Source: Dehalococcoidia bacterium (GTDB taxonomy: Bacteria; Chloroflexota; Dehalococcoidia; UBA2979). Taken from it: a stretch of 64,000 nucleotides of DNA. This document shows positions 37,112 through 56,621 of this stretch, in pieces; position 1 is the first letter of the stretch, and each line of letters begins with the position of its first letter. The notes beneath the pieces were generated by a model. The model saw only the letters and a list, made by a program, of their open reading frames with translations. It had not been told where the DNA came from and ran no database searches. Where the stretch lies: the NCBI GenBank assembly GCA_965262725.1, contig OZ253555.1:1184001-1248000 (forward strand), read 5' to 3'. Both the position numbers and the translations under genes were made by a program.

Positions 37112-39394
37112 CTACTGCTCCGGCAGCATTTCCTCGAGTAGCACGCGCGGCGAGGCGGGAAGCGTCCGCGCCCGCACGCCGGTTGCCTGGTAGATGGCGT
37201 TTGCGATGGCGGCGAGCGGCGGCACGATCGGCACCTCGCCCACTCCGCGCACGCCGTAGGGGTGGCCGGGGTTCGGCTCCTCCACCAGGATGGTCTCGAT
37301 CTGCGGCACGTCGAGCGTGGTCGGCATGCGGTAGTCGAGCAGGCTCGCGTTGCGCATTCGGCCCTCGTCGTCGTAGACGTACTCCTCCGTCAGGGCCATC
37401 CCGATGCCCTGTACGGCACCTCCCTGAATCTGACCCTCTACGTAGTCGGGATGGATGGCCGTTCCGACATCCTGGATCGCGGTGTAGCGCAGCACCTGCA
37501 CCTTGGCAGTATCGGGATCGACCTCGACGTCGACGATGTGGCAGGCAAAGGTGGGCCCGACGCCCTCCGGCGTGACGTCCGCCTTCCCCTGCACCGTGCC
37601 GCCGGTGTGGTGCAGTTGCCTCGCAATCTCCACGAAGCTCAGTGATCGCTCCTCGGGGCCGCGGATGACGCCGTCGTCGTCGTAGTGCACGAGCGAGGGG
37701 TCGACCTCCCAGATGAGCGCTGCGCGGGCCTCGAGTTCGCGGCGAATCTCGAGGCCCGCCTCGTGGACGGCCCAGCCGGTGGCAAACGTGGTGCGGCTGC
37801 CGCCGGTGACGGCCGTGTAGCCGATCGAGTCGGTGTCGACGACGATGGGCTTCACCTGCTCGTAGTCGATGCCGAGCGTCTCGGCGATCTGCATGGCGAG
37901 CGCCGCTCGCTGCCCGCCGATATCCACCGAGCCCAGAACCAGACTGACGGTGCCGTCGCGGTTGACGGTAGCGTAGGCTGACGACTCCAGCCCGCCGTTG
38001 CTCCAGTAGCCCATGGCGATACCGCGTCCTCGGTTCGCGCCCTGCAGTTCTGAGTTCCAGTGTGGACTCTCCTCGGCGGCCGTCATCACGGCCTCGTTGC
38101 CGATCGAGTGGAAGGCGGCGCCGTCGATGCGGCGCGTGCCGTCGACGGCGGCGTTGTGCTGCCTGAGCTTGAGCGGATCGATGTCGAGCTGCTCGGCGAG
38201 CTCGTCGAGGGTCGATTCCATGGCGAAGGAGCCGGCAGGAGCCCCCGGTGCGCGGTAGGCGGAGACCTTGGGCTTGTTAACGATAACGTCGTAGCAGTCG
38301 GCGCCTTGGTTAGGGATTCTGTACGGGGAGAACATGCACATCCCGCCGGCGCCGACGGGCGACCCGGGATACGCGCCGGCCTCGTAGGCGAGGTAGGCCT
38401 CGGCGGCGGTGAGTGTCCCGTCGCGCTTCGCGCCGAGCTTCACGCGGATGTAGGTGGCCGATGTTGGCCCGGTGGCGGTGAGCACCTCGTCGCGCTGCAT
38501 GATCATCTTCACCGGGCGGCCGGTCTTCTTCGACAAGACGGCGGCCATAGGCTCCATGTAGATCGGGATCTTTCCGCCGAAGCCGCCCCCGATCTCCATC
38601 GGGACGACGCGGATCTTGGAGACGGGGAGCTTCAGCACGCGCGCGAGCTGGTCCCTCATCAAGAAGGGGCCCTGCGTGGAGAGCCAGACGGTCAACTCGC
38701 CGCTCTCGTTCCAGAGCGCCGTCCCATTGTGCGACTCGATGTAGCCCTGATGCGCCGTGCCCGTCTCGTACTCGCGCTCGATCACGACCTCGGCCTCGGC
38801 GAAGCCCTGGTCGAGGTCTCCGATCTCCAGGCGCAGGTGGCTCGCGGTGTTCGGGATGTCGTTCTCGCTGCGCGGGCCAGGGCTGAAGCGTGCCAGCATC
38901 TCCACCGTATGCATGTTGGGGTGGATGCGTGGGGCGCCCTCGGCCATCGCCTCGTGGACGGAGAGCACCGGCGGCAGCGGCTCGTACTCGACCTCGATGA
39001 GCTGGAGCGCGTCCTCGGCGATGTGCGGGTCGGTCGCGGCCACGGCAGCGACCGCATGCCCGTGGTAGAGCGCGCGGTCGGAGGCGAGCACGTTGTCGAC
39101 GAGCCACTTCAGGTTCGAGGCGGTCTCGCCGAGGTCCGTGATCGCGTCCTCCGCGGCTGGGAAGTCGGCCTGCGTGATCACCGCCTTCACTTCCGGTAGC
39201 GCGAGCGCCTTCGCCGGGTCGATCCGCACGATGCGGGCATGCGCGTGTGGGCTGCGCAGCACGCGCCCGTAGAGCATCCCAGGCAGCCGGATGTCGGATC
39301 CGTAGTTGGCTCGTCCGGTCACCTTGTCGGTTCCGTCCGGCCGCACGGGGCGGGTGCCCACCACGCGATACGGCTTCTTGGCGGGGGCGACCAT
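37112..39394 (-). CDS. Xanthine dehydrogenase-family molybdopterin-binding subunit
   Basis: KVTGRANY, GGGFGGK, AYRAPG, GQIQGG, RGVGE. Confidence 0.95.
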   Translation of the reverse strand: MVAPAKKPYRVVGTRPVRPDGTDKVTGRANYGSDIRLPGMLYGRVLRSPHAHARIVRIDPAKALALPEVKAVITQADFPAAEDAITDLGETASNLKWLVDNVLASDRALYHGHAVAAVAATDPHIAEDALQLIEVEYEPLPPVLSVHEAMAEGAPRIHPNMHTVEMLARFSPGPRSENDIPNTASHLRLEIGDLDQGFAEAEVVIEREYETGTAHQGYIESHNGTALWNESGELTVWLSTQGPFLMRDQLARVLKLPVSKIRVVPMEIGGGFGGKIPIYMEPMAAVLSKKTGRPVKMIMQRDEVLTATGPTSATYIRVKLGAKRDGTLTAAEAYLAYEAGAYPGSPVGAGGMCMFSPYRIPNQGADCYDVIVNKPKVSAYRAPGAPAGSFAMESTLDELAEQLDIDPLKLRQHNAAVDGTRRIDGAAFHSIGNEAVMTAAEESPHWNSELQGANRGRGIAMGYWSNGGLESSAYATVNRDGTVSLVLGSVDIGGQRAALAMQIAETLGIDYEQVKPIVVDTDSIGYTAVTGGSRTTFATGWAVHEAGLEIRRELEARAALIWEVDPSLVHYDDDGVIRGPEERSLSFVEIARQLHHTGGTVQGKADVTPEGVGPTFACHIVDVEVDPDTAKVQVLRYTAIQDVGTAIHPDYVEGQIQGGAVQGIGMALTEEYVYDDEGRMRNASLLDYRMPTTLDVPQIETILVEEPNPGHPYGVRGVGEVPIVPPLAAIANAIYQATGVRARTLPASPRVLLEEMLPEQ

Positions 39395-39442
39395 GGTGCT
39401 TCCTTCCGTGCGGCGGCGCTGCCTTCAGCGCCCGCTCGCTCT

Positions 39443-39928
39443 CTAGCCCGCGGGAACGTCGACCCGGTCGGCGGCGTCCATGACGGCGGTGATGATCTTA
39501 TCGTAGCCCGTGCAGCGGCACAGGTTCCCGGCGAGCCAGTAGCGCACCTGCTCCTCGCTGGGACGGGGATGCTTGCTCAGGAGGGCGTGCGCCGCGACGA
39601 GGAAGCCCGGCGTACAGATGCCGCACTGCAGTGCGCCTCTCTCTAGGAAGGTCTCCTGCACAGGGATCAGCCCGTCGTGCCGGGCCAGTCCCTCCACGGT
39701 GGTCACCTGCGCGCCCTCGGTCTCGGCGGCCATCACCAGGCAGGCGTTCACGAGCCGGCCGTCTAGCATCACCGCACAGGCGCCGCAGTTGCCGTTGTTG
39801 CATCCCTCCTTGCTGCCCATCAGGCCGAGCCGATCCCGCAGCGCTTCGAGCAGCGAGTCGCGCTCGTCGGCGAGGAATTCCGTGGGTTCGCCGTTGATCT
39901 CGGCGGTGATGATGGTTCGGCTGCTCAT
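39443..39928 (-). CDS. Xanthine dehydrogenase-family 2Fe-2S subunit
   Basis: GCNNGNCGAC, QCGICTPG, GNLCRCTGY. Confidence 0.96.
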   Translation of the reverse strand: MSSRTIITAEINGEPTEFLADERDSLLEALRDRLGLMGSKEGCNNGNCGACAVMLDGRLVNACLVMAAETEGAQVTTVEGLARHDGLIPVQETFLERGALQCGICTPGFLVAAHALLSKHPRPSEEQVRYWLAGNLCRCTGYDKIITAVMDAADRVDVPAG

Positions 39929-40812
39929 GGGTGACTCGCGACCTCCTCGCCCCGGGCACGGCGCGCCGCGTCCCGCAGGGTGCGCTCCGTCAGCACGCCG
40001 GCCAGATGCCGCCGCTGCCGGACGGAGCCGCGCATGTCGTCGATCGGCCGCACCGCGGAGCTCGCGGCGGCGGCGGCGGCGGCGATGGTGTCGTCCGACA
40101 GCGGGTGCCCGACGAGCGCCTCTGTCGCCTCCTCCACGAGGAGCACGGTCGGTGCGGCGGCGCCGACCACGACGCACGCCTCGGCGACGTTCCCGCCATC
40201 GAAGCGCAGAGATGAGGCGACGTTGACGACGGCGATGTCCATCTCGTTCCGGGGGATGAACCTGAGGAAGCGTGCACCGCTCTCCGGTCTCGGCGCCGGC
40301 ACCTCGAGTGCGACCACGAACTCGCCCTCCTTGAGCACGTTCTGGCCCGGGCCCGTCGTGAAATGCGCCACGGGTACGCGCCGGTCGCCCCCCGGGCCGG
40401 CAATGATGGCGGTCGCGCCGAGCGCGATGAGAGGCGGAACGCCATCCGCCGCCGGCGACGAGTTGCAGAGGTTCCCCCCGAGGCTCGCGCGGCCCTGGAT
40501 TGCGGTTCCTCCGATCAGGGAGGTGGCGTCGATCAGCACGGGGTACGCTTTCCTGACGGCAGCATCGCCGTATATGCGGTAGCAGGGGGTCGCCGCGCCG
40601 AGGGTGAGTCCATCGCCATCCGCCCCGCGCACGGCGACCACTTCCGGGATGTGCTTGATGTCGACGAAGAGCGCGATCTCGTGGGTGCGCTCCCGCGCCT
40701 GGACGATCACGTCCGTGCCTCCGGCGAGGACGCGTGCGGTCGGCCCGCCGTCCGCGAGCAGCCGGGTGGCCTCCGCCACGTTCGATGCCCGCGCATACCT
40801 GAGGTCCTGCAT
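39925..40812 (-). CDS. Xanthine dehydrogenase-family FAD-binding subunit
   Basis: LAGGTD, ASLGGNLCNSSPAAD, PIDDMRGS. Confidence 0.95.
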   Translation of the reverse strand: MQDLRYARASNVAEATRLLADGGPTARVLAGGTDVIVQARERTHEIALFVDIKHIPEVVAVRGADGDGLTLGAATPCYRIYGDAAVRKAYPVLIDATSLIGGTAIQGRASLGGNLCNSSPAADGVPPLIALGATAIIAGPGGDRRVPVAHFTTGPGQNVLKEGEFVVALEVPAPRPESGARFLRFIPRNEMDIAVVNVASSLRFDGGNVAEACVVVGAAAPTVLLVEEATEALVGHPLSDDTIAAAAAAASSAVRPIDDMRGSVRQRRHLAGVLTERTLRDAARRARGEEVASHP

Positions 40813-44953: not shown

Positions 44954-46105
44954 ATGGGCCTGCGCGGCACGGCGGCGATTATCGGCGTCGGCTCCGTTAA
45001 GCCGGAGCGGCGCATGCCGGGGCGCTCGGGTATCGGCGTTGCCGCCGAGGCCGGGATCAAGGCTGTGCGCGACGCCGGCCTCCGACGCGAGGACATCGAC
45101 GGGTTGATCACCCAGATGCCCGGTGAGACGCCGACGGCGCTTGCCGAGTACCTCGGGCTTCGCCCCACCTGGTCGCACGGCGTCGCGATGGAGGGGGCGA
45201 CCGGCACGACCTCCGTCACGCTTGCCGCGATGGCTCTCGATGCGGGGCTCGCGAAGAACGTCCTCGTCGTGATCGGAGGGCTCGCACCCGGCGGTGACAT
45301 GCCGACCGAGGGCGGAAGCCGCCTCCGCGAGCAGTTCGACGCGCCCTTCGGTCCAGCATCGGGCGCGACGGGCTGGTACGCGATGATCGCGAACCGCTAC
45401 GCCCATGAGTACGGCCTCACCGACGAGCAGCGCGCCGCCGTGGCCGTCCAGCAGCGCGAGAACGCCCACGGGAACCCCAACGCCATCTTCAAGGGCATTC
45501 CTCTGACCATCGAGGACGTCGTCACCTCGCGAATGATCTCCACGCCGCTGCGGCTGCTTGAGTGCGTGATGCCCACGGGCGGCGCCGAGGCGGTGCTGAT
45601 GACCTCGGCCGATCGTGCCAAGTCCGGCCCGCAGGAGCCGGTCTATCTGCTCGGCTCCGGGATGGCCGTCGACCACTACACGCTGGGCGGGGCATCCACC
45701 CTGACGACCTCGCCGGTCGCGATCTCGGCGCGGCGTGCCTTCGAGATGGCGGGCCTCGGGCCGCGGGACATGGACATGGTCTCGCTCTACGACTGCTACA
45801 CCATCACCGTTCTCATCTCGCTTGAGGACGCCGGCTTCGTGCCGAAGGGTCAGGCGGGCGCCTTCGTCGCGAGCACCGACATCACCTACAAGGGCGAGTT
45901 GCCGGTCAACACGCACGGCGGACAGCTCTCCTATGGGCAGCCCATGGTCGCCGGCGGGATGTCGCACGTGACGGAGTCGGTACTGCAGATGCAGGGGCGA
46001 GCGGGGGACCGGCAGGTCGAGAAGCTCGACTACTGCTTCGTCAACGGGTGAGGGGGCTTCCTGAGCGAGATGTGCTCGCTGGTCCTCGGGAAGGACCCCT
46101 CGTAG
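44954..46105 (+). CDS. Thiolase-like (SCP2/Ltp2-type) protein with in-frame TGA at codon 366; candidate selenoprotein, 383 aa
   Basis: DIDGL, YDCYT, VNTHGGQLS. After TGA (46049-46051) the frame continues GGFLSEMCSLVLGKDPS-TAG, the family's final beta strand. Confidence 0.85.
46050..46101 (+). promoter_or_regulatory. Candidate bacterial SECIS hairpin
   Basis: AGCGAG-ATGTG-CTCGCT apical stem-loop (loop 18 nt after the TGA); lower pairs CTTCC/GGAAG and GAGGGG/CCCCTC. Confidence 0.5.
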
Positions 46106-46169
46106 CAGCGATGAGAATGCAATCGAGACCACCGGGCGGCCGTGTGCAGCGGGACGGGAGCTGATCCGG

Positions 46170-46589
46170 GTGAGCGAGGAATACGGTTTTCCCCTCCCGG
46201 TGCCGGGCGTCATTACGCAGCCCTTCTGGGATGGTCTGAAGGAGCATCGCCTCCTCGTGCAGCGCTGCCGCGCCGGGGGCCATCTCGTTCACTACCCGCG
46301 TGAATTCTGCCCGGTCTGCTACTCGGCGGATCTCGACTGGGAGCCCATGTCGGGCCGCGGGCGCGTCCACAGCTTCACGGTTGTGCACCGCGCCGCAAAC
46401 CCGGTCTTCCAGCAGGAGAAGGCACCGTACATCTTCGCGCTGATCCGGCTCGACGAGGGTCCGATCCTGACCTCGAATGTCGAGGGGATCCCGCACGAGG
46501 AGATACGGATCGAGATGCCGGTTGAGGTGTATTTCGACGACGTCACGGACGAGGTGACGCTTCCGAAGTTCCGCCCCGCCGCGCGCTAG
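46170..46589 (+). CDS. DUF35 Zn-ribbon/OB-fold protein (thiolase partner)
   Basis: PFWDG, QRC..HYPREFCPVC, SGRGRVHSFT, LDEGP, LPKFRP. Confidence 0.93.
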   Translation: MSEEYGFPLPVPGVITQPFWDGLKEHRLLVQRCRAGGHLVHYPREFCPVCYSADLDWEPMSGRGRVHSFTVVHRAANPVFQQEKAPYIFALIRLDEGPILTSNVEGIPHEEIRIEMPVEVYFDDVTDEVTLPKFRPAAR

Positions 46590-46686
46590 TGCACCGAGGC
46601 CGGGATGTACCCGGTCGCGCATATGTCCGGAAGCAAGAGTCTCGCCGCATATGGGATGCGCGCGAACGCGAGAAGGGAGTCACGGG

Positions 46687-47058
46687 ATGAAAGTCGCCTA
46701 CGTTTTCAGTACATCGGGGCATACGGCGAGCTATAAGCTCGGTCAGATGATCCTGCCGCAGTTGGAGGCGGACGGACACGGCGTCGAGGTCGTCGGGATG
46801 ATGTTCTTCGACGACAACACGTTCATTCTCCGGCGCGGCGACCCGATCGGCGAGCGCCTGGCGAAGCAGGCCGCCGAGAAGAACATCCTGCTGATGATGT
46901 GCGATGGCTGCGCGCTCGAGCGCGGACTCGCGACCGGCGGCACCTGGCCCGAGAAGAGCGTCGCGGACGGCACGGTCGACGGAATCCACGTCGGCTGCTT
47001 CCCCGATCTCTACCAGGCGCTCGCCGGCAATCCGCCGGATCACGTGATCTCGCTCTAG
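46687..47058 (+). CDS. SaoD/DsrE-family protein
   Basis: MKVAYVF, MILPQLE, GMMFFDDN, CDGCA, GCFPDLY (family recognised from recall). Confidence 0.8.
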   Translation: MKVAYVFSTSGHTASYKLGQMILPQLEADGHGVEVVGMMFFDDNTFILRRGDPIGERLAKQAAEKNILLMMCDGCALERGLATGGTWPEKSVADGTVDGIHVGCFPDLYQALAGNPPDHVISL

Positions 47059-47098: not shown

Positions 47099-47872
47099 AT
47101 GCCAGGGGTCAGGGAGGAGCTGATCGGCGGGGAGATCGCGCTCGTCACCCTCGACTTTCCGCCGGTGAATGCGCTCACGCCGGAGGCCTTCCTCGACATC
47201 ACGGCCACGTTCGACTCCTATCTCGCGCGCCCCGAGGTCCGGGTCTGCGTGCTGACCGCCGAAGGGGAGCGCGCCTTCTGCGCGGGCGTCGACGTGCGCA
47301 GTCGCCTCCCCGAAGGGGAGACGCAGGCGAGTCCCGGGGCGCACTACCGCCGGGCGCGCGAGACCTTCAACGCCATCTACGAGAGCGCCGTGCCTGTGAT
47401 CGGGGCGATCAACGGCCCGGCTCTGGGAGCGGGTCTCGCCATCGCCGCATCGTGCGACTACCTCGTGGCATCGACCCGCGCGAGCTTCGGCCTCCCCGAG
47501 ATCGATGTCGGGCTGCTCGGCGGTGCCCGGCATCTGCAACGCCTCTTCCCCCAGGGCGTGACCCGGCGCATGCACTACACCGCCGCGCGGGCGACGGCCG
47601 AGGAGGCGTACCGGCACGGCGCGGTGCACGCCGTGGTGCCGCCGGATGAACTCCTCGAGGCCGCGCTGGCCGAGGCGCGCGTGGTCGCCTCCAAGATGCC
47701 GGGTGGTATCCGCCTCGCCAAGGAGACGCTCAACCAGATCGAGTGGATGGAGCTGAAGGCGGGCTACCTCTACGAGCAGACGCGCACCGAGATCCTCCAG
47801 CGCACGGAGGACGCCGCGGAGGCGAAGCGGGCCTTCCTCGAGCGCCGTCCGCCCCGCTTCACCGGGAGCTGA
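47099..47872 (+). CDS. Crotonase family protein, EchA20-like
   Basis: DFPPVNA, FCAGVD, YESAVPVI, FGLPE, GARHLQRL. Confidence 0.9.
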   Translation: MPGVREELIGGEIALVTLDFPPVNALTPEAFLDITATFDSYLARPEVRVCVLTAEGERAFCAGVDVRSRLPEGETQASPGAHYRRARETFNAIYESAVPVIGAINGPALGAGLAIAASCDYLVASTRASFGLPEIDVGLLGGARHLQRLFPQGVTRRMHYTAARATAEEAYRHGAVHAVVPPDELLEAALAEARVVASKMPGGIRLAKETLNQIEWMELKAGYLYEQTRTEILQRTEDAAEAKRAFLERRPPRFTGS

Positions 47873-47908: not shown

Positions 47909-48856
47909 TCACGCGGTGGGGGACGGCCCCGGGCGATCGGCCGCAGGCGCCGCCCGATCGCGACGTGCTCGAGCGGCCGCCGCTTGCTCAGCGGCGTGGT
48001 AGGAGCTGCGCACCAGCGGGCCGGCCTCGACATGCGCGAATCCGAGTGAGAGCGCGTAGTCCCGCAGCGCCTCGAACTCATCCGGATGCCAGTAGCGCGC
48101 GACCGGGAGGTGCTTCGCCGTCGGCCGCAGGTACTGCCCGACCGTGAGCAGGTCGCAGCCCTGCTCGCGCAGGTCCTCGAAGGTGCGGTGGAGCTGCTCC
48201 ACGCGCTCGCCCAGACCGACCATCAGCCCCGACTTCGTCAGCATAGTCGGGTCGATCTTGTTGACGCGACGCAGCAATTCCAGGGAGCGGTCGTAGCGAC
48301 CCTTAGGCCGAACGCGAGGGTAGAGCTCGGCCACGGTCTCGGTATTGTGGTTGAGGACGGCGGGCCGGGCCTCCACGACAGTCGCGAGCGCCTCGCGGTC
48401 CCCCTCGAAGTCCGGGATCAGCACTTCGACCTCGCAGGTGGGGCGGCGGTGACGGACCGCACGGATGCAGGCGGCGAAGATCGAGGCGCCGCCGTCGGCC
48501 ACATCGTCGCGGTTCACCGCCGTGATCACCGCGTAGTCGAGGCCCATCGTCTCGACCGACTGCGAGAGGCGCAGTGGTTCGAGCTGGTCGATGGCGCCGG
48601 GCCGCCCGGACGTCACGGCGCAGAAGCCACACGCGCGCGTGCAGGTGTCCCCGAGGATCATGAAGGTCGCGGTACCAGAGTTGAAGCACTCGCCGATGTT
48701 GGGGCAGCGTGCCTCCTCGCACACGGTGTGGAGAGAGCGATCGCGGAGCAGGACGCGAATCTCCTCGAAGCGCTCCCCGGAGGGGAAGCGCGCGCGGAAC
48801 CACGGCGGCTTGCGCTCGCGGACGCGTGATCGCCGGCTCGTCGGCGCGCTAGTCAC
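47909..48856 (-). CDS. lipA: Lipoyl synthase
   Basis: CEEARCPNIGEC, CTRACGFC, GPLVRSSY. Confidence 0.98.
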   Translation of the reverse strand: MTSAPTSRRSRVRERKPPWFRARFPSGERFEEIRVLLRDRSLHTVCEEARCPNIGECFNSGTATFMILGDTCTRACGFCAVTSGRPGAIDQLEPLRLSQSVETMGLDYAVITAVNRDDVADGGASIFAACIRAVRHRRPTCEVEVLIPDFEGDREALATVVEARPAVLNHNTETVAELYPRVRPKGRYDRSLELLRRVNKIDPTMLTKSGLMVGLGERVEQLHRTFEDLREQGCDLLTVGQYLRPTAKHLPVARYWHPDEFEALRDYALSLGFAHVEAGPLVRSSYHAAEQAAAARARRDRAAPAADRPGPSPTA

Positions 48857-49595
48857 GACCGACCCCTCCCGCGGGGAGCGGCACCGCGCCCTCCCCGGCC
48901 TCGGCCGGCACCAGCTCCGCGTCGAAGCGCCGCTCGAACGCCGTGCCGAGCGCCGCCTCCGCCTCGGGCATCGCCACTGAGCGCCCGAGCGCGCGCTCGA
49001 GCGATGTCACGCCCGCATCCCGTATGCCGCACGGGACGATTGCATCGAACCAGCCGAGGTCCGTGCTCACGTTGAGTGCGAGCCCGTGCGCGGAGATGCC
49101 CAGCCGGATGCGGACGCCGACGGCCGCGATCTTCTCCAGAATCCCGTCCGGTCGGCCGTGCGCCGTCCACACGCCGGGTCGGCCAGAAACGCGCTCGGCC
49201 GGCACGCCGAAGTCGGCGAGCGTGTCGATCACCGTCGCCTCGAGCATGCGTACATAATCCGCCGCTCGCAGTCCGCGCCGTCTCAGATCGAGGATGGGGT
49301 ATACGACGAGCTGGCCGGGGCCGTGGAAGGTGATGTCGCCGCCCCGGTCCACCTGCTCCAGCGCCGCTCCCCTCGCCACGAGCTCGGCGGCGGGCACCAG
49401 CAGGTGCTCGAGGCCGCGCCCGTCGCCGCGGCTTCCGCTGCGGGCGCCGATCGTGTAGACGGGGGCGTGCTGGAGCAGCGCGAGCCGCTCAGCCCCTCCG
49501 CCTGCGGCGAGCGAGGCGTGCGCGCCCTGCATCCACGCCCGGGCGTCGGCGTACGAGATGGTGCCGGGGCGGTCGAGAAGGACAGGGCTCGCCAC
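48849..49595 (-). CDS. lipB: Lipoyl(octanoyl) transferase
   Basis: QHAPVYTIG, DRGGDITFHGPGQLVVYP, KIAAVG, IVPCG. Confidence 0.96.
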   Translation of the reverse strand: MASPVLLDRPGTISYADARAWMQGAHASLAAGGGAERLALLQHAPVYTIGARSGSRGDGRGLEHLLVPAAELVARGAALEQVDRGGDITFHGPGQLVVYPILDLRRRGLRAADYVRMLEATVIDTLADFGVPAERVSGRPGVWTAHGRPDGILEKIAAVGVRIRLGISAHGLALNVSTDLGWFDAIVPCGIRDAGVTSLERALGRSVAMPEAEAALGTAFERRFDAELVPAEAGEGAVPLPAGGVGRD

Positions 49596-49736
49596 GCCGG
49601 TAGCGTACCTCACGAGCATGGCGGGTGGGGTAAAGTGTTCTCCCCTCGGCGGCGCGTGCCGCCTCGCGGCGGGGGATGATCTCCACGATGCGCGCCGCGG
49701 CGGGTGAGCCCGCTGCCGCGCGGAACGGGTGAGGCG

Positions 49737-52523
<2,787 letters not shown>

Positions 52524-52629
52524 CTCGCGCTCCCTGCTCCTGGAGCAAGGGAGATGCCCGCGAGCGCTCGATCGCGGAGAATCCGGCACGGCCGTGCCGC
52601 GCGCCCGGCCGGATCAGGTAAGGGGTGAG

Positions 52630-53976
52630 ATGGCCATCGTATTCGCGCTGCCCGAGCTCGGCGAGGGCATCGAGGAGGCGGACGTTCTCAGGGTGCTCGT
52701 CTCCCCCGGCGATACCGTCGAGGTCGAGCAGGGCGTCATCGAGGTCGAGACCGAGAAGGCGACCCTCGAGGTCCCCGCGCCTGCCGCCGGGCGCATCGGC
52801 GAGGTGCGCGTCTCGAGCGGCGAGACGATTCGCGTCGGACAGGTGATTGTGACGATCGAGGAGGCCGGGTCCGGTACCGCCGAGGCCGCTGCACCATGGG
52901 CGTCCGCACCGCAGCCCGAGCCCCCGCCTCTGGCTGAGCCGGAGCCGGTCGCAGTCGCGTCCGCGCCGGCTGCAGCTGCACCCCCGCCGGAGCTGGCGCC
53001 GACAGCGTCCCCGGCCGCCCCGGAGATGCCCCCGGCGACCCCCTCCGCCCCGCCGCCGGTGGCGGGCCAGCCCATCTTCGCCGCGCCTTCCGTCCGCACG
53101 TTCGCGCGCGAGATTGGCGTCGACATCCGCGAGGTCGCCGGGAGCGGGCCTGGCGGGCGCATCTCCCAGGAAGACGTCAAGCGGCATGCCAGGAGCCGAC
53201 CGCGTAGCGGCCTGGGCGGCGGGACGCCAGCGCCGGATGGCGGCGCCTCCGTCGATTTTGCACGGTGGGGCGAGGTGGAGCGGCTGCCGATGAGCCGCGT
53301 GCGCCGCACGACGGCGGATACGATCTCCCGCTCGTGGCGGAGCCCGCACGTCACCCTCTTCCAGAAGGCTGACGTCACCGAGCTGGAGGCGCTCCGCCGG
53401 AGTTATCGCGAGCGCGTCTCCCGGGCCGGTGGCGGCAATCTGACGATGGTGGCGATCCTGCTCGCGGTCTGCGCCTCGGCGCTGAAGCAGCACCCGCGCC
53501 TCAACGCGAGCGTCGACGCCGCGGCTCAGCAGATCGTCTACAAGAGGCACGTGCACATCGGCGTCGCCGTCGACACCGAGCGCGGACTGCTCGTGCCCGT
53601 GGTCCGCGACGCCGGCCAGAAGAACGTGACCCAGCTCTCCGCCGAGCTGGGTGACCTCGCGGTGAAGGCACGCGACGGGAAACTCGGCCTCGACGACATG
53701 CGCGGCGGGAGCTTCACCATCTCTAACCTCGGCGGACTCGGCACCGGCTTCTTCACGCCGATCCTCAACCCGCCCGAGGTCGGGATCCTCGGGGTGGGGC
53801 GCGCGGCGACGGAGGCCGTCTGGGATGAGAAGTCGGGCGCCTTTGCGCCCCGCCTGCTCCTGCCGCTCTCACTCTCCTTCGACCACCGCATCGTCGATGG
53901 AGCGGATGGCGCGCGTTTCCTCTCGTGGGTCGTCGAGGCCCTGGAGCAGCCCCTGCTCCTCGCGCTGGAGGGCTAG
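52630..53976 (+). CDS. aceF: Dihydrolipoamide acetyltransferase E2
   Basis: Lipoyl domain ETEKA, E3-binding domain, FDHRIVDG. Confidence 0.95.
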   Translation: MAIVFALPELGEGIEEADVLRVLVSPGDTVEVEQGVIEVETEKATLEVPAPAAGRIGEVRVSSGETIRVGQVIVTIEEAGSGTAEAAAPWASAPQPEPPPLAEPEPVAVASAPAAAAPPPELAPTASPAAPEMPPATPSAPPPVAGQPIFAAPSVRTFAREIGVDIREVAGSGPGGRISQEDVKRHARSRPRSGLGGGTPAPDGGASVDFARWGEVERLPMSRVRRTTADTISRSWRSPHVTLFQKADVTELEALRRSYRERVSRAGGGNLTMVAILLAVCASALKQHPRLNASVDAAAQQIVYKRHVHIGVAVDTERGLLVPVVRDAGQKNVTQLSAELGDLAVKARDGKLGLDDMRGGSFTISNLGGLGTGFFTPILNPPEVGILGVGRAATEAVWDEKSGAFAPRLLLPLSLSFDHRIVDGADGARFLSWVVEALEQPLLLALEG

Positions 53977-53980
53977 CGGG

Positions 53981-55459
53981 ATGACGGTAACCGCGTCGAC
54001 TAGGAGTGGCGGCGCCGCGGCGCCGCGTGTCGTCGTCATCGGCGCGGGGCCGGGCGGCTACCCGGCCGCGTTTCACGCCGCGCACCTCGGCATGGACGTG
54101 ACACTGGTCGACCCGGAACCCAACCCCGGCGGGGTCTGCCTCTACCGGGGCTGCATCCCGTCGAAGGCGCTCCTCCACGTTGCCGGGCTGCTGCGCGAGA
54201 CGGAGGCCGCCGCCGACTGGGGGCTGCGCTTCGAACGCCCGGACATCGACCTCGACGCCGTGAGGGAGTGGAAGGGCCGGGTCGTCGGGAAGATGACCGG
54301 GGGCCTTGGCGTCCTGACAAAGCAGCGCGGGGTCCGCTACGTGCAGGGCCGGGCGCGGCTCGCCGGACCCAACATGGCCGTCGTCGAGCTCCCGGAGGGC
54401 GGTGACCAGACCCTCAACTTCGACTACGCGGTGCTGGCCACGGGGTCGCGTCCGGCAGTCATCCCCTCGCTGCTGCCGGGTTCCTCGCTGGTCATGGACT
54501 CGACCGATGCCCTCGAGTTGATCGACGTTCCGCCGACGCTCCTGATCGTGGGAGGCGGCTACATCGGTCTCGAGCTCGGAAGCGTCTACGCGGCGCTGGG
54601 CTCACGTGTCACGGTCGTTGAGATGACGCCCGGACTCCTCCCCGGGGCGGACCGCGACCTCGTTCAGCCGCTCCAGCGGAAGCTGGAGGGCCAGTTCGAG
54701 GAGATCCTGCTCGAGACGCGTGTTGAGTCGATGCGCGAGCAGGACGGCGGCATCGAAGTCGCGCTCGCCGCCGCGAACGTCGAACGTCCCGTCAGGCGTT
54801 TCGATCGCGCCCTCGTCTCCGTCGGCCGCCGACCGAACTCGGAGAGGCTCGGGCTCGAGAGCACGCGCGTGCGCCTCACGGAGCGCGGCTTCGTCGACGT
54901 GGACCAACAGCGTCGGACGGCAGAGCCGACGATCTTCGCGGTCGGCGATCTGGCCGGCGAGCCGATGCTCGCGCACAAGGCGACGCACGAGGGCCGTCTC
55001 GCGGCCGAGGCGATCGCCGGCCGTCCGGTCGCGTTCGATCCGTCGGCGATCCCGGCGGTCGTCTTCACCGATCCCGAGATCGCGTGGACGGGGCTGACCG
55101 AGGCCGAGGCGCGCGAGCGCGGGATCGACGTGGACGTGCTGCGCTTTCCGTGGGCGGCCTCTGGCCGCGCGACGACGCTCGGACGCACCAACGAGGGCAT
55201 GACGAAGCTCCTCGTCGACGCCCGCTCGGAGCGAGTGCTCGGTGTAGGCATCGTGGGAGCCGACGCCGGCGAACTCGTCGCCGAGGCGACGCTCGCGATC
55301 GAGATGGGCGCTCGCGTCGACGACCTGCGCGGGACGATTCACGCGCACCCGACCCTCTCGGAGACGCTGATGGAGGCGGCTGACCTCTTCACCAACGCGA
55401 GCCCCCACTACGTCGATCGCAGACGCGAGCGAGCGCTCCGCGGGCGCCTTGGTGGGTAG
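53981..55459 (+). CDS. lpdA: Dihydrolipoamide dehydrogenase
   Basis: GGVCLYRGCIPSK, GGGYIGLE, HAHPTLSE. Confidence 0.97.
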   Translation: MTVTASTRSGGAAAPRVVVIGAGPGGYPAAFHAAHLGMDVTLVDPEPNPGGVCLYRGCIPSKALLHVAGLLRETEAAADWGLRFERPDIDLDAVREWKGRVVGKMTGGLGVLTKQRGVRYVQGRARLAGPNMAVVELPEGGDQTLNFDYAVLATGSRPAVIPSLLPGSSLVMDSTDALELIDVPPTLLIVGGGYIGLELGSVYAALGSRVTVVEMTPGLLPGADRDLVQPLQRKLEGQFEEILLETRVESMREQDGGIEVALAAANVERPVRRFDRALVSVGRRPNSERLGLESTRVRLTERGFVDVDQQRRTAEPTIFAVGDLAGEPMLAHKATHEGRLAAEAIAGRPVAFDPSAIPAVVFTDPEIAWTGLTEAEARERGIDVDVLRFPWAASGRATTLGRTNEGMTKLLVDARSERVLGVGIVGADAGELVAEATLAIEMGARVDDLRGTIHAHPTLSETLMEAADLFTNASPHYVDRRRERALRGRLGG

Positions 55460-55467
55460 GTGCCCGC

Positions 55468-56010
55468 CTAGGCGCCGGCCCGGCGCTCCCGCTCGTGCAC
55501 GGGTCGCTCGAGGCTGGCGCGCACGCAGACCTCGTCGATGAGCGCAGGCAGCCGCTCGATCCCGCTCTCGAGCGAGAGGTGCTCCCCCGTATGGGGGTGT
55601 AGCCGCCAGCGCACGTCGTCGTAGTCGGCGGCGCTCACCGACTCGATCTCCTCCCAGCGCAGCCGGCGCAGCTCGCGGCCGGCGTGCAGGGCGACGAGCA
55701 TCTCCCCAGTCAGTGCGACGGCCGTTGGCGTCCGGCGCCACGTGATCGCGACGACCGGCGCGGTCACGACCGTCATCGCGAGCATGAGGAGGCCGAAACC
55801 CGTCGCCTCGCCGATTCCGGCGAGCAGCCCCACGGCGAGCGAGGCGACAGCCGCGAGGAAGGGCAGGGCGAAGGAGGCGTTGTTCCACCAGTGCACGGGG
55901 TGCGGGTGCACGCCGACGACCCCGTCGAGGGCAGCGACCGCGCGCGCATCCGCCCCCCGGAGCCCGCGGGCCCCCTCCGTGGTGCCCCGTGGGCCGCCGG
56001 CTACGCCCAT
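55468..56010 (-). CDS. Membrane protein with probable bacterial PH-like domain
   Basis: Two hydrophobic segments followed by LRWEEIESV. Confidence 0.65.
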   Translation of the reverse strand: MGVAGGPRGTTEGARGLRGADARAVAALDGVVGVHPHPVHWWNNASFALPFLAAVASLAVGLLAGIGEATGFGLLMLAMTVVTAPVVAITWRRTPTAVALTGEMLVALHAGRELRRLRWEEIESVSAADYDDVRWRLHPHTGEHLSLESGIERLPALIDEVCVRASLERPVHERERRAGA

Positions 56011-56621
56011 GTCGAGGTGTCGACGACGTGGCGGTCGCGCTCCTCGATGCGCGCCGCGAAACTCTCCATCTCCACTCCGAGGCCGAGCGACATGCGGTTC
56101 ATGTAGTTGAAGAGCGCTGTCTCGTGGACGATGTCGACGATCTCCTCGTCGGTCCAGCCCGCATCGCGAAGCACGTCAATATGGCTCTCGCGTACGGCGT
56201 CCGGCCGCCGGGTCAGCAGGTCGGCGAACTCCAGCGCTGCCATCATCCTGGGCGGGAGATCCGCCCGCCGGAAGTTGGACTTCAGCTGCTGTGTCAGTTC
56301 GACGGCGCCCCCGGCGCCGCGCGCCCCCTCGGCGTGCCCGACCGCTCAGTAGCGGCAGCGGTTGGCCACCGAGACGACCGTGTCGATCATGTCGTGTTCC
56401 GCCTTGGAGAGGCCGGAGTCCTCGTTGCGGAAGCTGACCGTGTGAGCGAGCCGCCACAGCGCCTCCATCTGGCGCGGCCGGATCGACATCGCCACGAAGT
56501 TCTTGCGGATGCGCCTGCGGATCTCGGCGGGCTCCGACTCGCCCGTCATTTCCTGGTAGGCGCTCAGGATCTCGCCCTCCGCATCCTGCGGCCCGACCGT
56601 GCGGACCCACGCGATTCCCAT
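56001..56621 (-). CDS. AhpD/CMD-like peroxidase-related selenoprotein (C89-R-Y-U92), 206 aa
   Basis: VVSVANRCRY-TGA-AVGH; the frame continues into the CMD C-terminus (LRDAGWTDEEI, FNYMNR); RBS GGGAGG. Confidence 0.9.

Follow-up and report, generated by a model that had tools for sequence, protein, structure and literature searches.

A thiolase-fold gene with a conserved in-frame TGA in a Dehalococcoidia genome: a probable Sal-like, DUF35-associated selenoprotein

The window considered here is the whole stretch of 64,000 nucleotides that spans positions 1,184,001 to 1,248,000 of contig OZ253555.1 (assembly GCA_965262725.1) from a Dehalococcoidia bacterium, and its positions are numbered from 1. 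Among its genes there is one for a thiolase-fold protein whose reading frame is interrupted close to the end by a TGA codon. A first-pass annotation, made from the letters alone, proposed it as the candidate of a new selenoprotein family with selenocysteine (Sec) as a catalytic residue of the C-terminal active-site loop. The follow-up analysis reported here favours the view that the gene probably encodes a genuine thiolase-fold selenoprotein, similar to the retro-aldolase Sal and associated with a DUF35 protein. The features required for the argument are given below, CtSal being the solved enzyme with which the protein is later compared, and SECIS standing for selenocysteine insertion sequence.

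44954..46105, + strand: thiolase-fold, Sal-like gene of 383 codons, including one in-frame TGA (Sec366), followed by TAG
45194..45196, + strand: codon of Gly81 (stretch AMEGATG), where thiolases have their nucleophilic Cys; equivalent to Gly89 of CtSal
45788..45799, + strand: YDCY motif (Y279, D280, C281, Y282), counterpart of the catalytic residues Tyr302 and Cys304 in CtSal
46049..46051, + strand: in-frame TGA, codon 366, in the place of CtSal Thr389 and of the Cys in the CxG motif of classical thiolases
46052..46102, + strand: tail of 17 codons, containing the oxyanion-hole Gly368 and the final beta strand (residues 372-379)
46064..46080, + strand: core of a SECIS-like hairpin of 6 bp (AGCGAG, loop AUGUG, CUCGCU), with lower stems to about 46050-46101
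46103..46105, + strand: true terminator TAG, in the same frame as the open reading frame

As already described in the first-pass annotation, the open reading frame (ORF) starting at ATG 44954 stops at TGA 46049-46051, directly after the residues YCFVNG, and continues in the same frame up to the TAG. The proposal that the tail restores the terminal beta strand also held, since the structural model places a strand at residues 372-379 and the read-through protein covers the Pfam profile Thiolase_C_1 to its very end (1-144 of 144). The longest ORF begins further upstream, at TTG 44873, and the M-[GST]-L-R-G start of the relatives agrees with ATG 44954. The host genome is a single contig of 3.67 Mb with 70.6% G+C, where long open frames end in TGA (1430), TAG (971) or TAA (109); TGA, as the commonest of these ends, is thus an ordinary stop in this organism. 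Contigs from three runs of three different studies showed 0 differences over the region 45400-46600, which includes the TGA. One run guessed to be RNA provided a 206-nt contig across the TGA, which is not proof of transcription.

When 79 related loci taken from species-representative genomes were read at the DNA level, 43 of them were found to hold 49 genes stopped at column 366, and the stop was TGA in all 49. Pooling the loci of this homology set with those of a pattern scan gave 78 distinct tails, and in these relatives column 366 was TGA in 78/78 and TAA or TAG in none, with identities among TGA-type genes falling as low as ~45%; one of them, L014, is 92% identical to the window gene and has the same TGA, which is therefore not specific to this assembly. 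Moreover, the coding frame downstream is conserved as well, remaining open for 17 or 18 codons in 77 of the 78 genes before a terminator that is TAG in 41, TAA in 36 and TGA in 1, so that TGA is avoided as the true end of these genes. Conserved residues of the tail are encoded by varying codons (four at Gly+1, three at Gly+2, six at Leu+10 and four at Gly+13), and the positions with synonymous changes include conserved Gly, Leu and Val residues, which argues that the tail is translated. In this line, the tail is homologous to the C-terminus of full-length relatives carrying Asn at column 366 (Asn-type). Of the 120 database proteins nearest to the window protein, 52 have their C-terminus exactly at column 366, at identities from 97% to about 49%, and the full-length ones have Asn (66), Lys (1) or Ile (1) at that column. 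A further difference between both groups is a Cys at position -5 (Cys361), which accompanies the TGA in 64 of 78 genes and is mostly Ala in Asn-type relatives.

The distribution was followed in 121 genomes, sampled evenly from the same class, of which 35 contained a close homologue, with 58 matches in total; 14 of these had one TGA, 9 had two and 35 had none, and no other internal stop was found. At least one TGA-type gene occurred in 11 of the 121 sampled genomes, with three or four copies in some genomes of one genus. All the TGA-type genes seen are in Chloroflexota records, except for one bin labelled Actinomycetota. Five loci (L015, L030, L043, L052 and L086) each carry two TGA-type genes within a few kb, and at L034 a TGA-type and an Asn-type gene form a tandem pair, also within a few kb.

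A second in-frame TGA found in part of the family falls in the YDCY motif. The window gene itself is a single-Sec form whose Cys281 is encoded by TGC (45794-45796), and among 80 distinct genes with TGA in the loop the codon for the YDCY Cys was a Cys codon in 47 (TGC 40, TGT 7) and TGA in 33. Judged by these codons, column 281 is a clear, classical Cys/Sec pair. This second TGA, not noticed in the first-pass annotation, is the strongest support for its proposal, and it falls on a residue that is essential in CtSal. The double-TGA relatives include L019, L020, L021, L033, L035, L037, L039, L043-L045, L050, L055, L058, L061, L086 and others; if terminated at the first TGA, their products would end at about residue 280 and would lack the C-terminal catalytic loops. 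The minimum free energy (MFE) of the hairpin after this first TGA (YD-U-Y) was only modestly lower than in the Cys forms (-9.4 vs -7.4, p 0.0016).

The hairpin following the TGA of the loop was confirmed in the form initially claimed, with arms AGCGAG and CUCGCU closing an AUGUG loop and with lower stems that RNAfold extends: counting from the U of UGA, nucleotides 16-21 pair with nucleotides 27-32, and 18 nt separate the TGA from the loop. A hairpin-to-UGA spacing of this kind is usual for bacterial SECIS elements. Its MFE in the window is -30.4 kcal/mol, compared with -23.7 +/- 3.2 for shuffled sequences (z -2.1), and 9 of 200 shuffles equalled it. A comparison of 41 distinct aligned TGA-type sequences revealed a seven-pair helix with 70% of its cells paired, in front of 64.5 +/- 1.5 in shuffles, none of 500 shuffles reaching 70%, and shifting the 3' partner lowered pairing to 26-52%. 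Compensatory changes are found at pair 20-28 (A-U in 14 rows, U-A in 13) and at pair 21-27 (G-C in 19, C-G in 7), a switch that is seen in the protein as a coupled choice between S-E-M-C-S and S-V-M-C-T. In each of the 41 sequences the apical loop starts 19-23 nt from the U of UGA, and the AUG of the loop, which is a Met codon, is kept in 77/78 genes, the sense-type relatives having mostly Gln. Energies also differ between both types, with an MFE of -10.9 kcal/mol vs -7.4 in 36 sense-codon paralogues of similar G+C (p 1.7e-6) and z-scores of -2.33 vs -1.12.

With regard to the decoding machinery, the suggestion that this genome decodes Sec was supported. It encodes a tRNA-Sec (71.6 bits; reported by ARAGORN as SeC with anticodon TCA), SelA (543 bits), SelB (285 bits) and SelD, the selD gene itself having one in-frame TGA and lying outside the window (G000:C1:2792527-2793462, - strand). 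The second UGA gene with a CxxU context, on which that suggestion was based, is real:

56001..56621, - strand: AhpD-type peroxidase-related gene (TIGR01926, 128 bits, cut-off 81.8) with the motif C-R-Y-U, TGA at 56346-56348

This gene is a member of a known selenoprotein family. Among the other 40 genomes with a TGA-type gene, selA was above cut-off in 37 and one more had a tRNA-Sec, whereas genomes having only sense-type genes carried selA in 29 of 36. The Sec machinery was consequently rejected as a discriminator between TGA-type and sense-type genes: being common in both groups, it shows only that a necessary condition is in place.

The description of the protein as thiolase-like needs some refinement. 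The thiolase fold is there, but the protein resembles retro-aldolases of the Sal/Ltp2 type, which function with a DUF35 partner, more than a thiolase. The best solved relative by sequence is CtSal (Protein Data Bank entry 9MYR, E 7e-84), followed by the putative thiolase 4U4E and the aldolase Ltp2 (6OK1). An AlphaFold2 model built from 61 sequences reached a predicted local distance difference test score (pLDDT) of 92.8 and a predicted template modelling (TM) score of 0.93, with residues 360-367 and 372-379 as the last two strands and pLDDT of 95-98 in the blocks of 361-380; the best structural match in Foldseek was again CtSal (9myr_A, TM 0.93, 41% identity). Passages of the CtSal report (PMC12329534) describe a retro-aldolase of Comamonas testosteroni that removes acetyl-CoA (CoA, coenzyme A) from 22-hydroxy bile-acid CoA esters, has Gly in place of the nucleophilic Cys of thiolases and functions bound to a DUF35 domain. 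According to the same passages, Tyr302 and Cys304 of its Y-D-C-Y motif are essential by mutagenesis, Gln347 and Gln352 are proposed thiolate stabilisers, and the oxyanion hole is made by the NH of Gly391 and by Gln161.

Residues of the window protein were mapped to CtSal from gap-free blocks of the sequence alignment, which paired Gly81 with Gly89, Tyr279 and Cys281 with Tyr302 and Cys304, Gln324 and Gln329 with Gln347 and Gln352, Sec366 with Thr389, and Gly368 with Gly391. The N-terminal catalytic Cys is thus absent, as first annotated, with Gly81 in its place; to place the protein in the wider family, which has roughly 15,500 members, 1.84 billion representatives were screened with a profile built from the Sec-type clade and 150 distant ones were typed, and Gly occupies the nucleophile column in 134 of these 150. 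The positions of Y279 and C281 are invariant in the 61-row alignment, where Sec was written as C. According to PMC3406046, the catalytic base is the Cys of the CXG motif (378-380 in the Zoogloea enzyme), a residue that gives way to the Asn of an NGG sequence in a thiolase-like protein. The N-G-G of the Asn-type relatives belongs to this same loop. Since Gly391 of CtSal aligns with G368, and given this equivalence of NGG and CXG, U366-G-G368 corresponds to the CxG loop of classical thiolases, in agreement with the original reading. By this alignment, Sec366 is at the acid/base Cys position of classical thiolases and precedes the oxyanion-hole Gly by two residues.

A tree of 62 rows, from which a filter had left out the double-TGA genes, placed its 23 TGA rows in one clade of 25 rows (support 80/91), whose sister group consists of 31 Asn rows (98/95); neither of these clades includes the Ser-type genes or the paralogues that the window's own genome encodes. 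Two genes with an Asn codon (L034:4093 and L085:4111) are nested in the Sec clade, and the best full-length match of the profile, P0123 (389 aa), lies within the Sec clade as well and has Val at column 366 and Y-D-N-F-S instead of YDCY. The codons AAC and TGA differ at all three positions; Ser and Cys may have served as intermediates between them, or the gene may have recombined with a paralogue. Taking the explanation as a whole, it seems likely that the Sec-type genes form a Dehalococcoidia-specific clade of Sal-like, DUF35-associated acyl-CoA C-C lyases with an unusual history of change from Asn to Sec.

Several observations weigh against this explanation. Most selenoproteins have plentiful Cys homologues. 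Here, Cys was found at column 366 in none of the 120 nearest proteins, and two pattern scans with the same flanks gave at least 62 family genes with TGA and no Cys codon among the 120 matches listed; only 2 of the 150 distant representatives, P0135 and P0257, have it, both without the Cys of YDCY. A search for Cys forms with residues 340-383 as query produced a lone candidate, the truncated P0002, and was uninformative. In those 150 sequences the column is widely variable (Asn 31, Thr 16, Gln 11, then Val, Ser, Tyr, Phe, Ile and others, with 8 terminating at it), so that in sense-codon relatives it is not a universal catalytic position of the family. Moreover, Gln161 of the CtSal oxyanion hole is not kept and corresponds to Gly137 in the window protein. 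As for the machinery, selA, selB and tRNA-Sec were not found in 2 of the 40 TGA-type assemblies, namely G008, which holds L021 and is labelled Actinomycetota, and G023, which holds L041. With respect to the RNA, an Rfam scan of 45950-46200 gave one chance microRNA match and no SECIS family. A hairpin at the site of the SECIS-like element is also formed by many Asn-type paralogues (L064:4141 and L071:4141 among them), so the hairpin alone is not diagnostic, and in the case of the first TGA its z-scores are the same as in Cys forms (-0.10 vs 0.02). The hairpin of the Asn-type genes could be either a relic or a precursor.

With these points counted in, the sequence comparisons make it very probable that Sec is inserted at UGA 46049-46051. 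Decoding of this UGA as Trp, Cys or Arg, through leaky or programmed read-through or through a near-cognate or suppressor tRNA, would account for the two of 40 genomes whose assemblies show no Sec machinery. It is nevertheless a very unlikely solution, given that selA or tRNA-Sec is present in 38 of the 40, that the codon is always TGA and never TAG or TAA, that TGA serves as an ordinary stop in the host genome, that the downstream hairpin carries compensatory changes, and that Trp or Cys codons, just one mutation away, are not seen in the clade among the matches listed. Gene callers and NCBI records do end the protein at the TGA, for example in the 367-aa 'thiolase family protein' P0006, as would be expected from a true stop with a product of 365 residues and a downstream conservation due to RNA structure or to coupling with the DUF35 gene. 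Such a stop is still harder to accept, because it would leave the synonymous variation of the tail, its fixed length of 17-18 codons and its homology to the Asn-type tails without a cause, would deprive the enzyme of its oxyanion-hole Gly and of the last core strand, and would cut the double-TGA forms at about residue 280. That the TGA arose through faulty sequencing or assembly, or through a recent nonsense mutation leading to a pseudogene, is the least credible of these possibilities and can practically be set aside, with identical contigs from three studies and a TGA shared by the 92%-identical L014 and by dozens of distant relatives.

If Sec is indeed incorporated, SelB and tRNA-Sec would decode UGA 46049-46051 guided by the hairpin, whose start lies 15 nt downstream of this codon. 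The resulting enzyme would keep the catalytic set of CtSal (Tyr279, Cys281, Gln324, Gln329 and Gly368) and, having Gly81, would have no nucleophilic Cys; it most likely functions as a dimer with one copy of the neighbouring DUF35 protein on either side. A Sal-type lyase is the somewhat favoured assignment on the basis of these residues, and the likely reaction would be a retro-aldol or related Claisen-type cleavage of a beta-hydroxyacyl-CoA. From homology, Sec366 would sit beside Cys281 at the alpha carbon of the substrate. The direct catalytic role given to Sec366 by the first-pass annotation is plausible, although it falls somewhat short of being the expected outcome. Its likeliest form would be that the selenolate, ionised at neutral pH, serves as proton-transfer partner of the Tyr/Cys dyad, in such a way that it may start or carry the proton relay assigned in CtSal to the Cys thiolate and Tyr. 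Alternatively, a reversible Se-S bond with residue 281 might form, or a Se-Se bond in the double-Sec forms, and the frequent Cys at -5 (64/78) leaves room for the role of a resolving Cys. A more daring possibility, which we regard as rather doubtful, is that Sec366 and Cys/Sec281 rebuild a two-chalcogen site from the two C-terminal loops of a thiolase fold deprived of its N-terminal nucleophile, and that the selenolate acts directly in acyl-CoA C-C chemistry, either through general base/acid catalysis at the alpha carbon or as the nucleophile of a selenoester intermediate. If this were true, we would be dealing with a selenoenzyme for a non-redox C-C lyase or thiolase reaction, arisen from Asn and not from a redox Cys.

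The selenium could also serve for regulation or protection instead of catalysis. Under such a scheme, a selenenylsulfide between Sec366 and either Cys281 or Cys361, or a diselenide, would switch the lyase off under oxidising conditions. The Cys361 that co-varies with the TGA (64 of 78 genes, mostly Ala in Asn-type relatives) would fit a gate of this kind, and to our knowledge nearly all known selenoproteins are redox proteins. Positions 281 and 366 are, moreover, alternative acid/base Cys sites of the thiolase superfamily and so are probably close to each other, as deduced from portions of PMC12329534 and PMC3406046. However, Cys361 is missing in 14 of the 78 genes, and the Cys of CtSal equivalent to position 281 needed to be reduced, as stated in a passage of PMC12329534. 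Redox gating thus stays a possible but rather unlikely purpose for Sec366, and the view of a Sal-like selenoprotein lyase is the one kept for what follows.

Besides the thiolase-fold gene, a same-strand cluster contains three more genes:

46170..46589, + strand: putative DUF35 partner gene with zinc ribbon and oligonucleotide/oligosaccharide-binding (OB) fold (Pfam zf-ChsH2 and OB_ChsH2_C)
46651..47058, + strand: SaoD/DsrE-family gene (NF040913, 190 bits, cut-off 152), directly after the DUF35 gene
47099..47872, + strand: crotonase-type enoyl-CoA hydratase (Pfam ECH_1)

A DUF35 gene comes next in 38 of 43 TGA-type and in 35 of 36 sense-type loci. The zinc ribbon of the window DUF35 protein, C-x4-H-x8-C-x2-C, resembles the Cys3His1 type, which, in the passages available from PMC12329534, is reported only for Shy, the DUF35-bearing partner of CtSal. 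The idea that a ribbon of the Shy type marks the family was rejected, as it is present in the window and in L014, and the partners of most relatives have four Cys. The crotonase-type hydratase may supply the beta-hydroxyacyl-CoA, a point of local context only, for an ECH-like neighbour is found in 4 of 43 TGA-type loci and the arrangement of the window is kept only by L014. DsrE/SaoD-like and NIPSNAP neighbours were similarly discarded as conserved partners after recurring only in this 92%-identical locus. When 60 ORFs flanking the gene at 10 loci were scanned with Pfam, genes for CoA-transferase III, short-chain dehydrogenases/reductases (SDR) and ECH were detected at some of these loci, and no fixed partner besides DUF35 emerged from it. 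Farther away in the window, flanking clusters at 37115-40812 (- strand) and 47912-55456 encode a three-subunit molybdoenzyme of the xanthine-dehydrogenase family, lipoyl synthase and a protein with a lipoate-ligase domain, and pyruvate dehydrogenase E1, E2 and E3.

Altogether, this well-supported selenoprotein clade in a known fold, with double-Sec members, is apparently undescribed in the literature searched. A thiolase is absent as a selenoprotein family from the main text of the table of a 2026 review and of the deep-Sep and BSepDB papers (supplements not covered), and likewise from passages of the Haft preprint, a 2022 review, the GOS survey and the Olavius survey. Full-text literature searches found no thiolase-fold selenoprotein either, with the BSepDB site, Haft and Tolstoy 2025 outside their scope. 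No model of NCBIfam release 20 attains its cut-off with this protein, the best one being NF004811 (320 bits vs a cut-off of 421), and NCBI records call the truncated products 'thiolase family protein'. Near relatives have Asn at the Sec column, and methods that pair Cys with TGA would therefore miss the family, leaving only truncated proteins in the databases; this limitation of Cys/TGA pairing is acknowledged in a passage of the deep-Sep paper itself. Known selenoproteins are nearly all oxidoreductases found via their Cys homologues, and a C-C lyase/thiolase scaffold would point to a blind spot of discovery. At a practical level, the annotation of dozens of split or truncated Dehalococcoidia genes would be corrected. 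The natural series formed by Asn, Sec alone and Sec at both sites offers a way to test the role of selenium at an acid/base position of the thiolase fold, and, from an ecological point of view, selenium supply would be linked to acyl-CoA breakdown in an abundant and largely uncultured marine and subsurface lineage.

Compared with described selenoprotein families such as the AhpD-like, DsrE-like and peroxiredoxin-like proteins and formate dehydrogenase, the window gene shares the in-frame UGA followed by a hairpin and a genome with selABCD, whereas its enzyme is neither a thiol oxidoreductase nor a metalloenzyme, lacks CxxU or UxxC motifs and has Asn, not Cys, in its sense counterpart. Among thiolase-fold enzymes, the closest system is the complex of CtSal with Shy and its DUF35 domain (9MYR), similar in the YDCY motif with Tyr and Cys, the Gly in place of the nucleophile, the Gln pair, the oxyanion Gly and a DUF35 protein as partner, putative in the window. 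They differ in that CtSal has Thr389 where the window protein has Sec366, and Gln161 where it has Gly137. Moreover, the DUF35 of the window is a stand-alone protein, whereas that of CtSal's partner is the tail of a MaoC hydratase, and the neighbouring hydratase of the window is of the crotonase type, unlike MaoC. In contrast to the bile-acid role of CtSal, nothing in the window neighbourhood points to steroids. The steroid aldolase TcLtp2-ChsH2(DUF35) (6OK1) is more distant from the window protein (E 2e-47, TM 0.90) and shares with it a thiolase fold without nucleophilic Cys, a DUF35 partner and the Tyr of a Y-D-x-F/Y motif. An aldolase of the Ltp2 type was discarded, since Ltp2, which has no Sec, carries a YDHF motif and the acid Tyr344, both absent from the window protein, with YDCY and Met331 at those positions. 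Lastly, the classical thiolases of the Zoogloea ramigera type and the SCP2-thiolases have the same fold, with NEAF and HDCF, respectively, in the position of YDCY. A classical thiolase was ruled out by Gly81 at the position of the CxS nucleophile, and without this nucleophile thiolysis through an acyl-enzyme of the Cys89 type is impossible. What the window protein does retain is the U-G-G loop as the counterpart of their CXG fingerprint (378-380, from the parts of PMC3406046 available), with selenium predicted instead of sulfur at the position of its Cys.

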